DNA from: a virus
Lineage: Duplodnaviria > Heunggongvirae > Uroviricota > Caudoviricetes
Virus record (IMG/VR): IMGVR_UViG_2526164599_000004
Reading direction: 5' to 3' (one strand)
DNA length: 43,594 nucleotides
Position numbers and translations under genes: made by a program. The notes under the pieces were generated by a model. The model ran no database searches. It saw only the letters and a program-made list of their open reading frames with translations, and was not told the DNA's origin. Positions 2,490 to 43,594 of the stretch are shown here, one piece after another; the first letter of the stretch is position 1; each line of letters starts with the position of its first letter.

Positions 2490-2685
2490 TTCTGATCCTC
2501 TTCAAAAGGCTACCTGTTATTGGTCGATTTAAGTCAACCTTTACCGCTGATTCGTGGAACAGATATTCTCTTCCATCCTTAACCGGAGGAGGGAATATCT
2601 TGCATTCGCGCACCCATCGACGAACTGTTTCAAGGCTTCTTGGGCGTCGCTGGCGAGCGTTCCACTCCTGAAGTGTCAAGTACAT
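2467..2685 (-). CDS. xis: Lambda excisionase
   Basis: 72-aa ORF (MYLTLQEWNARQRRPRSLETVRRW...) matching lambda Xis; overlaps int start as in lambda. Confidence 0.93.
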   Translation of the reverse strand: MYLTLQEWNARQRRPRSLETVRRWVRECKIFPPPVKDGREYLFHESAVKVDLNRPITGSLLKRIRNGKKAKS

Positions 2686-2724
2686 CGCAAAGTCTCCGCA
2701 ATTACACGCAAGAAAAAACCGCCA

Positions 2725-2892
2725 TCAGGCGGCTTGGTGTTCTTTCAGTTCTTCAATTCGAATATTGGTTATGTCTGCATGTGCTATCTGCGCCCATATC
2801 ATCCAGTGGTCATAGCAGTCATTGATGTTCTCTGCTTCGATAACTCTGTTGAATGGTTCTCCATTCCATTCACCTGTGACTCGGAAGTGCAT
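2725..2892 (-). CDS. Small hypothetical protein (lambda orf-55-like)
   Basis: 55-codon ORF (MHFRVTGEWNGEPFNRV...) found by hand translation, below the 60-aa ORF-track cutoff; same size and position as the small ORF after xis in lambda. Confidence 0.45.
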   Translation of the reverse strand: MHFRVTGEWNGEPFNRVIEAENINDCYDHWMIWAQIAHADITNIRIEELKEHQAA

Positions 2893-2974
2893 TTATCATC
2901 TCCATAAAACAAAACTCGCCGTAGCGAGTTCAGATATAATTTCCACCAAAGGCAGTAGTTGCTGATGCTAAGAA

Positions 2975-3403
2975 TTATTCAATATCTATTCCTGTAATAT
3001 CTTTTATCTTTTTCCTTGCAAAGCCTTTTGCTAGTGATTTTGAAACACTTATTAGTGTACTAATTCCCTCATCCTTAAAGTTTGTTTTTATAGTTTGCCA
3101 GACCTCCTTTTGACGCAAGTCAGCAATAAAATCATGCCCTCTTGCTGTCAACCTCAGTGGTACTTCGATCCAACTATATCCAACACCTTCCCCTAACTCG
3201 TTGGACATTATATGACCGAACCCAGGTTTTCCATCAACCCTGACTATTAATTCGTAGTCGCATAATAATCGCATATGGAAAATAAAATTTTGGTCATATC
3301 TATTAAAGCCATTATCCTCTAGTTCACTAAGCATCGTGTCAGGGCCATGAGTTTTTTCGAATGCGATAAGTAGATCTTTTAGATATTGCTGGTCTAATTT
3401 CAT
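2975..3403 (-). CDS. Hypothetical protein, AT-rich accessory gene (142 aa)
   Basis: Clean 142-aa ORF in the variable region after xis where lambda carries ea8.5; clearly AT-rich relative to flanking phage genes; no function recognised. Confidence 0.6.
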   Translation of the reverse strand: MKLDQQYLKDLLIAFEKTHGPDTMLSELEDNGFNRYDQNFIFHMRLLCDYELIVRVDGKPGFGHIMSNELGEGVGYSWIEVPLRLTARGHDFIADLRQKEVWQTIKTNFKDEGISTLISVSKSLAKGFARKKIKDITGIDIE

Positions 3404-3430
3404 TGCCGCCTCCGTGACATGTCACAGAGA

Positions 3431-3769
3431 TTTATATCATTAATTTTGTTTCGTGCCAGCCTTTGGTCACCCAGCATTGTGAGTCACCATTACACGGGCA
3501 TGAATTAACAGGAACTCTCTCGCCGCACTTACCGCAACGTTTTCTGCTGATCGATTTTATACGCCAGCGCACACGTGCATCATCCTGGCGGCTCAGTAAC
3601 GCGATGTACTCACCAAACTCGTAAGGCGCATGCCTGAAGCGGCGCGTGGCTCAGTTACGATCCAGCATTTCAATTTCCTGAGCATCAAGTACAAGCTCCA
3701 GCTTACGCATACCGGATGATGCTTGCTTGGCTCTCTGATCGACTTTGCGCTCTGCTGATGATTTAGCCA
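3431..3769 (-). pseudogene. Small ORF (39 codons) followed in-frame, after one TGA, by 73 more codons with a Cys-rich zinc-finger-like tail
   Basis: Hand translation: MAKSSAERKVDQRAKQASSGMRKLELVLDAQEIEMLDRN, TGA at 3650-3652, then in frame ...RKRCGKCGERVPVNSCPCNGDSQCW... to TAA at 3431-3433; the downstream part has no start codon of its own. Confidence 0.3.
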
Positions 3770-3782
3770 TTCTGCTTTTCCT

Positions 3783-3836
3783 GCATTAGGAGAAAGACAA
3801 TCATGGCGGCGCGGATACTTCCGGTATCTTTTTACT
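3783..3836 (-). repeat. Remnant of a NinX-like gene 3' end (about 50 bp homologous to 19631-19688)
   Basis: Reverse complement reads ...ATCCGCGCCGCCATGATTGTCTTTCTCCTAATGCAGGA..., nearly identical to the 3' end of the gene at 19348-19695; only about 22 codons of frame remain. Confidence 0.6.
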
Positions 3837-3964
3837 CGATATTACCCTTCAATGGCACATACAAGAAGAGAGCCATCAACAGGAGTGAGTGAGGAATCGA
3901 CAACCAGCAACGCTTAATTATCTATAGTGTCGTATTTGCTTCATAAAATATGGCGAATAACACA

Positions 3965-3998
3965 AAGCCCGCAGCAGCTCATTGTGCGGGCTTTTCTT
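3965..3998. terminator. Bidirectional intrinsic terminator hairpin
   Basis: AAGCCCGCA...TGCGGGCTT stem followed by TTTTCTT on plus and TTTGTGTT on minus; sits about 70 bp downstream of the 204-aa minus-strand gene. Confidence 0.5.
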
Positions 3999-4063
3999 AT
4001 ACATACTTCCTAGAGATAATTCTATGGAGGCATTAAATTAATACTGTCATTGGTAATATCATA

Positions 4064-7944: not shown

Positions 7945-8045
7945 TGTCAGCGCCAATGATATAAGACAGTAATTCACCATTTGGATTGTCCGCTCCACCC
8001 AACATGTTGTTTCCTTAAGGTTCCTACACCACAAAGGGAACACTC

Positions 8046-10012
<1,967 letters not shown>

Positions 10013-10069
10013 TGACCAATAGCGGACATTAAAAATGGCGAAAAACGGCCAATAATCTTGGCGTTGACA

Positions 10070-10193
10070 TCATGGCTGAACTCCTGAAATAGCTGTGAAA
10101 ATATCGCCCGCGAAATGCCAGGCTGATTAGGAAAACAGGAAAGGGGGTTAGTGAATGCTTTTGCTTGATCTCAGTTTCAGCATTAATATCCAT
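10070..10193 (-). pseudogene. gam: gam 5' fragment (first 41 codons, [24 protein letters not shown]...)
   Basis: Matches the lambda Gam N-terminus; separated from the rest of gam by the IS21-family element. Confidence 0.8.
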
Positions 10194-10291
10194 TTTTTAT
10201 AAGCGTCGACGGCTTCACGAAACATCTTTTCATCGCCAATAAAAGTGGCGATAGTGAATTTAGTCTGGATAGCCATAAGTGTTTGATCCAT
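10148..10291 (-). CDS. kil: Lambda Kil
   Basis: 47 aa [46 protein letters not shown]; 3' end overlaps the gam start as in lambda. Confidence 0.85.
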
Positions 10292-10424
10292 TCTTTGGGA
10301 CTCCTGGCTGATTAAGTATGTCGATAAGGCGTTTCCATCCGTCACGTAATTTACGGGTGATTCGTTCAAGTAAAGATTCGGAAGGGCAGCCAGCAACAGG
10401 CCACCCTGCAATGGCATATTGCAT
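10260..10424 (-). CDS. cIII: Lambda CIII (FtsH inhibitor)
   Basis: Hand-translated 54 aa [54 protein letters not shown]; below the ORF-track cutoff. Confidence 0.85.
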   Translation of the reverse strand: MQYAIAGWPVAGCPSESLLERITRKLRDGWKRLIDILNQPGVPKNGSNTYGYPD

Positions 10425-10496
10425 GGTGTGCTCCTTATTTATACATAACGAAAAACGCCTCGAGTGAAGCGTTATTGGTATGCGGTAACGCAGCGC

Positions 10497-10865
10497 TCAG
10501 GCGGCTTTGATAGTCATATCATCTGAATCAAATATTCCTGATGTATCGATATCGGTAATTCTTATTCCTTCGCTACCATCCATTGGAGGCCATCCTTCCT
10601 GACCATTTCCATCATTCCAGTCGAACTCACACACAACACCATATGCATTTAAGTCGCTTGAAATTGCTATAAGCAGAGCATGTTGCGCCAGCATGATTAA
10701 TACAGCATTTAATACAGAGCCGTGTTTATTGAGTCGGTATTCAGAGTCTGACCAGAAATTATTAATCTGGTGAAGTTTTTCCTCTGTCATCACGTCATGG
10801 TCAATTTCAATTTCTATTGATGCTTTCCAGTCGTAATCAATGATGTATTTTTTGATGTTTGACAT
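10497..10865 (-). CDS. ea10: Lambda Ea10
   Basis: 122-aa ORF matching lambda Ea10 as recalled. Confidence 0.8.
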   Translation of the reverse strand: MSNIKKYIIDYDWKASIEIEIDHDVMTEEKLHQINNFWSDSEYRLNKHGSVLNAVLIMLAQHALLIAISSDLNAYGVVCEFDWNDGNGQEGWPPMDGSEGIRITDIDTSGIFDSDDMTIKAA

Positions 10866-11047
10866 CTATTCATATCCTCATAGATAAAAAATCGCCCTCA
10901 CATTGGAGGGCAAAGAAGATTTCCAATAATCAGAACAAGTCGGCTCCTGTTTAGTTACGAGCGACATTGCTCCGTGTATTCACTCGTTGGAATGAATACA
11001 CAGTGCAGTGTTTATTCTGTTATTTATGCCAAAAATAAAGGCCACTA

Positions 11048-11248
11048 TCAGGCAGCTTTGTTGTTCTGTTTACCAAGTTCTCTGGCAATCATTGCCGTCG
11101 TTCGTATTGCCCATTTATCGACATATTTCCCATCTTCCATTACAGGAAACATTTCTTCAGGCTTAACCATGCATTCCGATTGCAGCTTGCATCCATTGCA
11201 TCGCTTGAATTGTCCACACCATTGATTTTTATCAATAGTCGTAGTCAT
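11048..11248 (-). CDS. ral: Lambda Ral (restriction alleviation)
   Basis: 66 aa MTTTIDKNQWCGQFKRCNGCKLQSECMVKPEEMF... Confidence 0.85.
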   Translation of the reverse strand: MTTTIDKNQWCGQFKRCNGCKLQSECMVKPEEMFPVMEDGKYVDKWAIRTTAMIARELGKQNNKAA

Positions 11249-11318
11249 ACGGATAGTCCTGGTATTGTTCCATCACATCCTGAGCATGCTCTTCGAACTC
11301 TTCAAATTCTTCTTCCAT
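11232..11318 (-). CDS. Lambda orf28-like acidic peptide
   Basis: Hand-translated 28 aa MEEEFEEFEEHAQDVMEQYQDYPYDYDY; overlaps the ral start. Confidence 0.5.
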   Translation of the reverse strand: MEEEFEEFEEHAQDVMEQYQDYPYDYDY

Positions 11319-11461
11319 ATATCACCTTAAATAGTGGATTGCGGTAGTAAAGATTGTGCCTGTCTTTTAACCACATCAGGCTCGGTGGTTCTCGTGTACC
11401 CCTACAGCGAGAAATCGGATAAACTCTATTCACCCCTACAGAGAGCAAAAGAGAAACGCCG

Positions 11462-17463: not shown

Positions 17464-17536
17464 CCATCTACATCACTGAGCTAATAACAGGCCTGCTGGT
17501 AATCGCAGGCCTTTTTATTTGGGGGAGAGGGAAGTC

Positions 17537-17783
17537 ATGAAAAAACTAACCTTTGAAATTCGATCTCCAGCACATCAGCAAAACGCTATTCACGCAGTAC
17601 AGCAAATTCTTCCAGACCCAACCAAACCAATCGTAGTAACCATTCAGGAACGCAACCGCAGCTTAGACCAAAACCGAAAGCTTTGGGCTTGCCTTGGTGA
17701 CGTTTCGCGTCAGGTTGAATGGCATGGTCGCTGGCTGGATGCAGAAAGCTGGAAGTGTGTGTTTACCGCAGCATTAAAGCAGC
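17537..17783 (+). pseudogene. ninB: ninB 5' fragment (first about 82 codons) truncated by IS629
   Basis: MKKLTFEIRSPAHQQNAIHAVQQILPDP...FTAALKQ matches the lambda NinB N-terminus; the frame runs into the IS inverted repeat at 17784. Confidence 0.85.
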
Positions 17784-17825
17784 TGAACCGCCCCGGGTTT
17801 CCTGGAGAGTGTTTTATCTGTGAAC

Positions 17826-18716
17826 TCAGGCTGCCAGATCATCGTTTCCGATGGAAGCATAATAAGCTTTTTCTGCTTCTGCCGGTGGGATATGGCCCAG
17901 CCTTTCCAGCAATCGTCGATTGTTATACCAGTCCACCCACGTGAGTGTGGCCAGCTCCACTTCTGTCCGGTTTTTCCAGCTCTTACGGTGTATTACCTCC
18001 GCTTTGTAAAGGCCATTGATGCTCTCCGCCATCGCGTTGTCATACGAGTCACCAGTACTTCCTGTTGATGCCAGTAATCCGGCTTCCTTAAGCCGCTGTG
18101 TGTAGGCCAGCGATACATACTGAGAACCTTTATCACTGTGATGGACTGTGCCGGACGGTCGACGGGCCCATAACGCCTGCTCCAGAGCATCCAGCACGAA
18201 TGTCGTTTCCATAGACGATGAGACCCGCCACCCCACGATGTATCCGGCAAACACATCAATGATGAACGCCACATAGACGACCCCCTGCCATGTGCTGACG
18301 TAAGTAAAATCAGCCACCCACAACTGGTCAGGACGTTCTGCCACAAACTGACGGTTTACGCGGTCGCCTGCGGCAACGGCTTTCCGGCTGACGGTAGTGC
18401 GGACCTTTTTACCCCGGAGAACACCGGCAAGTCCCATAACCGCCATGAGGCGCGCCACTGTACATCTGGCTACCCTGATTCCTTCCCGTAACAACTGACG
18501 CCAGACTTTACGCACACCGTATACCTGATGATTCCCATCGTATACGCGCAGTATCTCTTTCTTCAGCCAGTCATCGCGCTGCGCACGGGCACTGCGTTTA
18601 TCAGGATGATGTCGCTGTTGCTGACAGTGGTAATACGTTGACGGGGCAATATGTAGTTCACTGCATACCGGTCCGACCCCGTACAGCTTACGCAGCTTAT
18701 CCAGCAGTGGCATCAC
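17826..18716 (-). CDS. IS629 transposase OrfB
   Basis: 296 aa, integrase catalytic core; recalled as IS629/IS1203 OrfB. Confidence 0.85.
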
Positions 18717-19039
18717 TTTTTCCAGAGGCGGTCGAACTCCGCCTTCGCAAAATAAGCGGAAGCCTGGCGAAGGATATCGTTACTGCGGCGCAGTTCACGA
18801 TTTTCACGTTCCAGCTCTTTCAGACGCTGACGTTCAGCGGTGGTGAGCCCGCCATCACCGCCTCCGGTATCCCGCTCATGCTGGCGTACCCAGACACGCA
18901 GAGTCTCCGGTGTACAGTCAATCTTTGGGGCAATGGAACAAATTGCCGCCCACTGTGAGTCATATTCGCCCTGACTTTCCAGAACCATACGAATCGCCCT
19001 CTGACGGACTTCGGGGGAAAAACGAGTATTTTTAGTCAT
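18713..19039 (-). CDS. IS629 OrfA (HTH)
   Basis: 108 aa [26 protein letters not shown]...; lies upstream of and overlapping orfB, the usual IS3-family arrangement. Confidence 0.85.
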
Positions 19040-19174
19040 CCTGTTTACCTCTTTCTCAGGGAGTTTAGTCTCCAGGATTCCCGGGGCGGTTCAGTTCATC
19101 AGTCCTCGACGGATGTTTACTACCGTATCCAAAGCGGCATTGATGGCGATCGGGCAGGGCGTCAGGAGGGCTGC

Positions 19175-19351
19175 ATGAGACGACAGCGGCGAAGTTTCAC
19201 CGACATCATCTGCGAAAACTGCAAATACCTTCCAACGAAACGCTCCAGAAATAAACGCAAGCCAATCCCAAAAGAATCTGACGTAAAAACCTTCAACTAC
19301 ACGGCTCACCTGTGGGATATCCGGTGGCTAAGACATCGTGCGAGGAAATGA
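19175..19351 (+). CDS. ninE: NinE
   Basis: 58 aa [51 protein letters not shown]... matches lambda NinE; its ATG overlaps the stop of the truncated upstream frame (ATGA). Confidence 0.8.
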
Positions 19352-19695
19352 CAATGGATTATTCACAGTTAAGTGATTTTGAAATTAACCGAATGGTAGG
19401 AGACATAATTTTTAAAGGCCTTTGGGCATGTAAGCCTGAAACATCAGGGAATAACACCAACAAATGGTATTACGGAAATGCCGATGTAAGTCTTGAGCCA
19501 TTAAACCCTTTGCCTGACTACTGCAATGATCCGAGCGCTTCATGGCCGATTATTGAGAAATACAGGATTTCTATCTTAGACCAGTTAACTGAATGGTGTG
19601 TGGATGCAAAAGGCGTAAGCCCAATATTTGATACCAGACCTCTCCGCGCCGCCATGATTGTCTTTCTCCTGATGCAGGAGGCCAATAATGCTTAG
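19348..19695 (+). CDS. NinX-like phage protein (possibly DUF2591 family; family name from memory)
   Basis: 115 aa from [22 protein letters not shown]...; start overlaps the ninE stop. Confidence 0.5.
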
Positions 19696-43085: not shown

Positions 43086-43144
43086 TGAAAAACGTTTATG
43101 TGAAACCGCCTCCGGGCGGTTTTGTCGTTTATGGAGCGTGAGGA

Positions 43145-43594
43145 ATGGGTAAAGGCAGCAGTAAGGGGCATACTCCGCGCGAAGCGAAGGACAACCTGAA
43201 GTCCACGCAGTTGCTGAGTGTGATCGATGCCATCAGCGAAGGGCCGGTTGAAGGTCCGGTGGATGGATTAAAAAGCGTGCTGCTGAACAGTACGCCAGTG
43301 CTGGACAGTGAGGGGAATACCAATATCTCCGGCGTCACGGTGGTGTTCCGGGCCGGTGAGCAGGAGCAGACACCGCCGGAGGGATTTGAATCCTCCGGCT
43401 CCGAGACGGTGCTGGGTACGGAAGTGAAATACGACACGCCGATCACCCGGACCATCACGTCGGCAAACATTGACCGACTGCGTTTTACCTTCGGCGTGCA
43501 GGCACTGGTGGAAACCACCTCAAAGGGGGACAGGAATCCGTCGGAAGTCCGCCTGCTGGTTCAGATCCAGCGTAATGGTGGCTGGGTGACGGAA
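43145..43594 (+). CDS. J: Host-specificity (central tail fibre) protein J, N-terminal part; runs off the window
   Basis: MGKGSSKGHTPREAKDNLKSTQLLSVIDAISEGPVEGPVDGLKSVLLNSTPVLD... matches the lambda gpJ N-terminus; open to the window end. Confidence 0.9.
   Translation, partial: MGKGSSKGHTPREAKDNLKSTQLLSVIDAISEGPVEGPVDGLKSVLLNSTPVLDSEGNTNISGVTVVFRAGEQEQTPPEGFESSGSETVLGTEVKYDTPITRTITSANIDRLRFTFGVQALVETTSKGDRNPSEVRLLVQIQRNGGWVTE

Follow-up and report, generated by a model that had tools for sequence, protein, structure and literature searches.

Why does a complete copy of IS629 in the nin region of a lambda-like prophage lack the short target duplication that a normal insertion would leave, and what happened to the genes on either side of it? 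The locus lies in a stretch of 43,594 nt of tailed-phage DNA (IMG/VR record IMGVR_UViG_2526164599_000004), called the window here, which is identical to positions 73980–117573 of the draft contig AIHI01000004.1 (GCA_000250375.2). The right end of the window is the end of that contig and falls inside tail gene J. The prophage adjoins ybhC, the att-lambda site, and carries two copies of the element: copy 1 in the nin region and copy 2 in a lysozyme gene. The junctions of copy 1 with its flanks are known from the draft-assembly contig alone. A preliminary description of the window had taken copy 1 as the mark of a deletion, and we asked how much DNA is absent, which genes it came from and by what route it was most probably lost.

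Copy 1 is a complete element of 1,310 bp on the minus strand (17784–19093), and the same boundaries were obtained from a search for inverted repeats, from comparison with copy 2 and from alignments to intact relatives. Its terminal inverted repeats, IRR at the orfB end (17784–17808, plus strand) and IRL at the orfA end (19069–19093, minus strand), match at 23 of 25 positions. Two minus-strand frames lie between them. orfA (18713–19039) specifies the 108-aa HTH DNA-binding part of the transposase (Pfam HTH_Tnp_1, PF01527, E = 4e-12), and orfB (17826–18716) the 296-aa catalytic DDE part (Pfam rve, PF00665, E = 3.5e-27, together with HTH_21, PF13276, and rve_3, PF13683). The frames overlap at 18713–18716. 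This overlap is covered by a full-model match to the ALIL pseudoknot (18642–18758, minus strand; Rfam RF01497, 116.2 bits against a gathering score of 50), an RNA element for programmed −1 frameshifting, which is accordingly the predicted frameshift signal of the element.

Aligned over its full length and without gaps, copy 1 is 96.0% identical to the IS629 of phage BP-4795 and 95.7% identical to the element annotated as "insertion sequence: IS3 family IS629" in phage Stx2_499 (95.6–96.0% over the annotated elements of these two phages), while IS629 copies 100% identical to it reside on ETEC chromosomes and plasmids, for example those of H10407. The values for the two phages exceed the identity of about 95% that goes with the name IS629, at the edge of the isoform range. 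Published IS629 subtypes differ from one another by 4–5% (PMC3271280), and the divergence of copy 1 from the O157:H7 copies, also 4–5%, is consistent with that spread. Judged by these sequence characters, copies 1 and 2 are both of the IS629 type within the IS3 family.

Copy 2 provides an internal control for the ends of copy 1. It occupies 23079–24388 on the minus strand, within an rrrD-type lysozyme gene, and its flanks, read directly, carry the 4-bp target duplication GGAC at 23075–23078 and 24389–24392 (23075–24392 with the duplication included). On the uninterrupted sequence of the E. coli CE0021a prophage the two flanks overlap by exactly these 4 bp; copy 2 is therefore a simple insertion into the lysozyme gene. 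It lies 5.3 kb from copy 1 in the same orientation and is identical to it at all 1,310 positions (100%), so that the IS tips of copy 1 are fixed unambiguously. Since copy 2 keeps its own duplication intact, it was not the recombination partner of copy 1.

Copy 1 is flanked by CAGC and GTTC: on its left side the sequence closes with ...AAAGCAGC, and on its right side it opens with GTTCATCAG.... When the ends were re-examined against copy 2, against the inverted repeats and against two intact relatives, no direct repeat of 3–4 bp was found around copy 1 in any register. The preliminary description was thus right that this copy has no target duplication, and the missing duplication marks a secondary rearrangement rather than a failure of IS629 membership. 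At the right junction the right end of the element, GGTTCA, is joined to a flank that begins with GTTCA, so that the same five bases are present twice, once in the IS tip and once at the start of the flank.

The gene on the left is ninB/orf, which specifies a recombination mediator. Its 5′ 247 nt remain (ninB′, 17537–17783, plus strand), that is, 82 codons and 1 nt, and they match the Pfam NinB profile (PF05772, E = 4.5e-33) over positions 2–81 of 131. The 82 residues are identical to the start of the 146-aa NinB of phage ev099; 82 of 146 codons are left. From there the frame continues for 53 codons into the IS, to 17944, and would give a 135-aa fusion product. Upstream, between ren and ninB, a tR2-like intrinsic terminator resembling that of lambda (17489–17512, plus strand; in the terminator scan, a stem of 8 bp that includes 6 G-C pairs and precedes a T-run) was left untouched by the event.

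To the right of the element, comparison of translations identified a 3′ remnant of a phage gene for a 175-aa Dam-type N6-adenine methyltransferase (dam′, 19094–19178, plus strand), 85 nt that consist of 1 nt, 27 codons and the stop. The 27 residues are identical to the C-terminal 27 of the 175-aa enzyme in ev099 and CE0021a. The intact protein of the relatives matches Pfam Dam (PF05869) with E = 6.4e-65, the remnant by itself being too short to score. The dam′ stop overlaps the ATG of ninE at 19175 (ATGA), and ninE itself (19175–19351, plus strand; full-length match to Pfam NinE, PF05322, E = 4.2e-43) is intact, the first undamaged gene past the event. Both sides agree with what had been read from the letters at the outset, namely a ninB cut after about 82 codons at the IS inverted repeat, and a sequence past the IS that starts within a reading frame and ends in the ATGA overlap with ninE. 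The span given there, 17537–19174, rightly takes in ninB′, the element and the dam remnant.

We sized the missing DNA against two relatives in which the module is uninterrupted. In the compared locus of phage ev099 (NC_049953.1) the left flank runs up to 2500 and the sequence resumes with the right flank at 3134, so that 2501–3133 is absent from the window; in that of the CE0021a prophage the flanks end and start at 3367 and 4001, with 3368–4000 absent. Against both, the absent segment measures exactly 633 bp, and no base is extra or lost at either IS end. It comprises the final 194 nt of ninB and the initial 443 nt of dam, 4 nt being common to both genes, and its edges read AGGATGTTGTTCC... 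on the ninB 3′ side and ...CTGATTTGGCGACC on the dam 5′ side. The preliminary description had also counted ninC among the losses, along with the rest of ninB and most of the gene before ninE, all removed by an IS-mediated deletion or by recombination between IS copies. Loss of the ninB 3′ end and of 443 nt of dam, exactly at the IS, bears out most of this proposal, but only two genes are affected. In the closest relatives dam shares 4 nt with ninB on one side and 4 nt with ninE on the other, which leaves no space for a further gene such as ninC; this lineage lacks ninC, and dam directly follows ninB. The lambda nin region, suggested earlier as the yardstick for the gap, is the wrong comparator here, the gene before ninE being a dam-type methylase and not ninC or ninD.

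The spacing of the two flanks was surveyed in complete E. coli genomes with a 600-nt query in which both flanks were joined without the IS. Both flanks occur in one place in 1,048 complete genomes, with a median of 2 places per genome, and the full-coverage matches among those listed span 1,233 bp, that is, 600 + 633. Measured against this very well conserved module the deletion is real, and its limits match the IS ends base for base. Neither a hidden duplication nor an alignment that closes the gap emerged; the sequence is truly absent relative to the relatives. The joined flanks without an IS, as an IS-free deletion would leave them, were not found in the 5,426 complete E. coli genomes, which ties the deletion to the IS. 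Identity of the flanks to their best relatives is 97–98% on the left and 99.4% on the right. Similar steps in identity occur elsewhere in the CE0021a alignment.

Neither IS junction of copy 1 was found in the 5,426 complete E. coli genomes, and the left junction was likewise not found in GTDB species representatives or in viral contigs. The 135-aa NinB′-IS fusion product is present in one contig only, as a single-member protein cluster. The event is strain-specific and presumably recent, and its junction, unique to one assembly, could serve as a strain-specific marker in the manner of O157 IS629 site typing. Two sets of candidates for a closer relationship were rejected. The best matches with at least 80% coverage proved to be joined pieces with an IS nearby whose junctions differ. 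RM9131, which has the left junction of copy 2 in common and an att-lambda location, carries a different, heavily rearranged effector-carrying prophage that is uninformative on copy 1.

Related damage to the same module is seen in finished genomes. In EC1515 an IS629-like element that lacks a duplication separates P′ from dam′, and 1,650 bp are absent; strain G5 has an IS629-like element in ninB, 26 bp upstream, with sitD on its other side. MLI104K2 combines a simple IS insertion in ninE (duplication ATC) with a 676-bp deletion that involves no IS and takes away ninB and the 5′ part of dam.

At the copy 1 locus itself there is an intact IS, no duplication, exactly 633 bp absent between the IS ends, and two truncated genes. 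An IS-mediated deletion, of whatever sub-type, very probably explains this arrangement; from its product we infer the order of events, the end that moved and the role of the transposase. The leading version, to which we give about an even chance, is a one-step intramolecular transposition, or adjacent deletion, by IS629 in the nin region. IS629 would have inserted normally, either into ninB or into the adjoining dam-type methyltransferase gene, making a 3–4 bp duplication. The transposase OrfAB, produced via −1 frameshifting, would later have linked one end of the element to a second site in the same DNA molecule, at a distance of 633 bp, perhaps starting from a tandem dimer or an IRR-IRL junction intermediate of the kind described for IS3-family elements. 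The intervening 633 bp would have been lost and one complete IS would have stayed; its two flanks, coming from different sites, would then have no duplication in common. The flanks are colinear and 633 bp apart in the relatives, so a simple local deletion suffices and a third IS629 with complementary flanks, which had been proposed as something to look for, is not needed.

Precedents for such an outcome have been published. IS3 creates adjacent deletions of various lengths, some with the IS fully preserved and without IEE (PMC8860574). At IS629 sites of O157:H7, matching duplications were present at only 21 of 47 sites in four genomes (PMC3271280), and many genomic deletions in O157 have been attributed to IS629 (PMC9943667).

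Copy-out-paste-in transposition by itself does not predict one-step adjacent deletions (bioRxiv 10.1101/2023.06.07.543989), and a two-step route fits it without extra assumptions (same source). A second IS629 would have inserted at a distance of 633 bp from the first, with the same orientation, by a local hop of a circular copy-out product and with a duplication of its own, and RecA-dependent recombination between the direct copies would then have removed the 633 bp along with one of the copies. What remained would be identical to the observed arrangement, an intact IS whose flanks do not match and a deletion that stops at the IS ends; the one-step and two-step routes leave identical products, and the sequence cannot separate them. 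Movement of this IS subtype within the same prophage is evident from copy 2, 100% identical, in the same orientation and 5.3 kb away, and RM9131 shows that IS-IS recombination rearranges such prophages. Against this, two independent same-orientation insertions within 633 bp are required, and no genome with a single or a double insertion at these two sites was found among the complete E. coli genomes and viral contigs searched, though absence there does not mean that such a genome never existed. Both hypothetical pre-deletion ancestor junctions, with IS629 and a duplication at one endpoint, were also not found in viral contigs. Nothing in copy 1 marks it as a chimera of two IS variants, though two identical parents would not show up in this way. 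Taken together, we regard the two-step route as possible but on the unlikely side.

An assembly artefact is very unlikely. In that case the real genome would have two IS629 copies around the 633-bp segment or be arranged in some further way, and assembly of the draft would have merged the copies and dropped the short unique piece. The contig is indeed a draft with two perfectly identical internal repeats of 1.3 kb, it ends in the repetitive tail gene J, and the junction-specific fusion protein is confined to it. Yet both junctions are clean to the base, the remaining prophage is colinear with its relatives, and copy 2 was assembled with its correct duplication. An IS without a duplication and with DNA absent beside it is also found in finished genomes, EC1515 being an example.

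Slightly less probable still is an exchange between prophages, in which IS629 copies in ninB of this prophage and in dam of a second lambdoid prophage on the same chromosome recombined to give a hybrid prophage, a large inversion or deletion, and a reciprocal junction elsewhere. Only here would a third IS629 with complementary flanks be expected. Many E. coli have several prophages that bear the module (the survey gave a median of 2 places per genome), rrrD has been split by an IS within an att-lambda prophage in RM9131, and the different identities of the left and right flanks could mean that the two sides differ in history. Identity steps of this size are nevertheless normal phage mosaicism, as seen elsewhere in the same alignment, and the flanks are adjacent genes of one module in more than 1,000 genomes, which makes a local deletion far more economical. 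The weakest proposal, that the 633 bp were lost first without an IS and that IS629 then landed by chance exactly on the junction, is extremely unlikely: IS-free deletions do occur here (in MLI104K2 a 676-bp segment covering ninB and the 5′ half of dam is gone, and its junction carries no IS), but a normal insertion would have left a 3–4 bp duplication that copy 1 lacks, the IS-free junction is absent from the 5,426 complete genomes, and an exact landing on an existing junction would be a coincidence.

We think it quite unlikely, on present indications, that target choice of IS629 in lambdoid prophages is non-random. The likeness between the right end of copy 1 and the flank to which it is joined could, by analogy, reflect attraction of the transposase to sequence that resembles an IS tip, a preference that has been reported for IS911. 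In other strains a 95%-identical IS629 subtype has apparently struck the rrrD site of copy 2 independently, with a 3-bp as against a 4-bp duplication. If both were true, the nin and lysis modules would hold IS629 hot spots that systematically disable prophages.

For the prophage, the predicted consequence of the deletion is inactivation of both NinB/Orf and the phage Dam methylase. The nin region of lambda is dispensable. Three IS elements are present in all: besides the two IS629 copies, the second of which disrupts the lysozyme gene, an IS21-family element lies in the early-left (pL) operon (istA, 8046–9218; istB, 9215–10012). The prophage is a decaying element and probably lysis-defective. 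In annotation, the ninB and phage dam genes of the window are best entered as pseudogenes truncated by an IS. Such events are known already, with good documentation for IS629 and the IS3 family, and this is ordinary IS damage: another documented case of IS629 eroding prophages, which opens no new question and has little import past annotation.

The element and its locus can be set beside four known systems. With IS629/IS1203, of the IS3 family in E. coli and Shigella, it shares the length of 1,310 bp, terminal repeats that begin with TGAACCGCCCCGGG, orfA (HTH) and orfB (rve/DDE) with the ALIL frameshift pseudoknot, and the 4-bp duplication at copy 2. It differs in that the subtype found here is 4–5% removed from the O157:H7 copies and in that copy 1 has no duplication.

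The nin5 deletion of lambda also removes DNA between P and Q, including ninB, and by established lambda genetics is compatible with phage viability. About 2.8 kb is lost in nin5 as against 633 bp here, where the tR2-like terminator is kept and the event is IS-borne.

IEE-promoted excision concerns the same IS family. According to Kusumoto et al. (2011), as cited in PMC9943667 and bioRxiv 10.1101/2023.06.07.543989, the deletions that IEE promotes start at the IS and extend from a few nucleotides to more than 40 kb; in the products the IS is typically gone, wholly or in part, and the joint displays microhomology. The present deletion likewise starts at the IS, but its ends are exact, the whole IS is kept and no microhomology has collapsed. 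Since the element survives whole and GTTCA is present twice, IEE-type microhomology joining was rejected as the direct cause.

The closest counterpart is the class of IS-mediated adjacent deletions, exemplified by IS1 in gal, by IS3, IS911 and IS629, and by small IS629-associated polymorphisms in O157. The 633-bp size and the ninB-dam location are specific to this strain, with the junction in one assembly only; we find no difference of substance. In those events as in this one, a complete IS remains, one flank has been exchanged for more distal DNA of the same molecule with no duplication, and the deletion stops exactly at the IS tip.

IS629-like elements, 96–97% identical, are found in the same nin region of other E. 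coli genomes, among them EC1515, G5 and MLI104K2. In EC1515 the element, also present in EC974, lacks a target duplication, and 1,650 bp are gone between truncated remnants of gene P and of the phage Dam-type methyltransferase gene (P′ and dam′). The G5 element lies 26 bp upstream within ninB and joins ninB to sitD. MLI104K2 carries a simple insertion in ninE, flanked by an ATC duplication, and has a separate, IS-free deletion of 676 bp that takes out ninB along with a 5′ portion of dam. In the window, the lambda tR2-like intrinsic terminator just upstream of ninB (17489–17512) is intact.

At the right end of IS629 copy 1, the copy in the window's nin region, the tip GGTTCA is followed directly by flanking sequence that starts with GTTCA, so that five nucleotides of the tip occur twice in tandem (19088–19098). 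Since the flanking GTTCA is also found in intact relatives, it belongs to the target, and its match to the tip may be a chance event, expected roughly once in 1,000 per junction. The tip repeat was absent at the three other full-length IS copies checked outside rrrD.

IS629 copy 2 interrupts an rrrD-type lysozyme gene and, together with its 4-bp duplication GGAC, occupies 23075–24392. Its left junction is present in four other assemblies, with an identical 62-aa product. Two loci with an IS at the rrrD site are L008 (about 10150–11459) and L011 (about 740–2049). Their elements are only 95% identical to that of the window and are flanked by a 3-bp duplication (GAC) where the window has 4 bp; both differences suggest that the site was struck independently by separate IS insertions. 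In the finished genome RM9131, the copy-2 left junction is present at att-lambda, and the 3′ part of rrrD adjoins int, behind another IS copy. This placement of the rrrD 3′ part indicates an IS–IS inversion in RM9131. The observations on this insertion also cover L012 (8810–9166 and 19892–21296).

The early-left (pL) operon carries a plus-strand insertion of an IS21-family element (about 7973–10042) that separates gam from kil and has candidate terminal repeats at 7973–7994 and 10021–10042. It encodes IstA (istA, 8046–9218, plus strand), with rve and Mu-transpos_C_2 domains, and IstB (istB, 9215–10012, plus strand; IstB_IS21, E = 1e-87). A full-length Rfam match to the lambda cIII thermoregulator RNA element (10379–10437, minus strand; 88.5 bits) confirms that the early-left region is of lambda type. 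A 50-nt inverted repeat, 90% complementary (3779–3828 and 19630–19679), pairs the ninX 3′ end with a place in the early-left arm, where the second copy is probably part of another ninX/DUF2591-like gene on the other strand.

The window and the draft contig end together inside a lambda J-type tail-tip gene (43130–43594). Assemblies typically break in this way where prophage DNA is repeated, and the prophage's right attachment site therefore falls outside the window. A late-region cargo gene for a 360-aa OmpC/NmpC-type porin sits on the minus strand (21059–22141), with the Q antiterminator gene on one side and the holin gene on the other. Many E. coli prophages are arranged alike, and in DLP12 the porin gene is likewise placed on the opposite strand between Q and holin.
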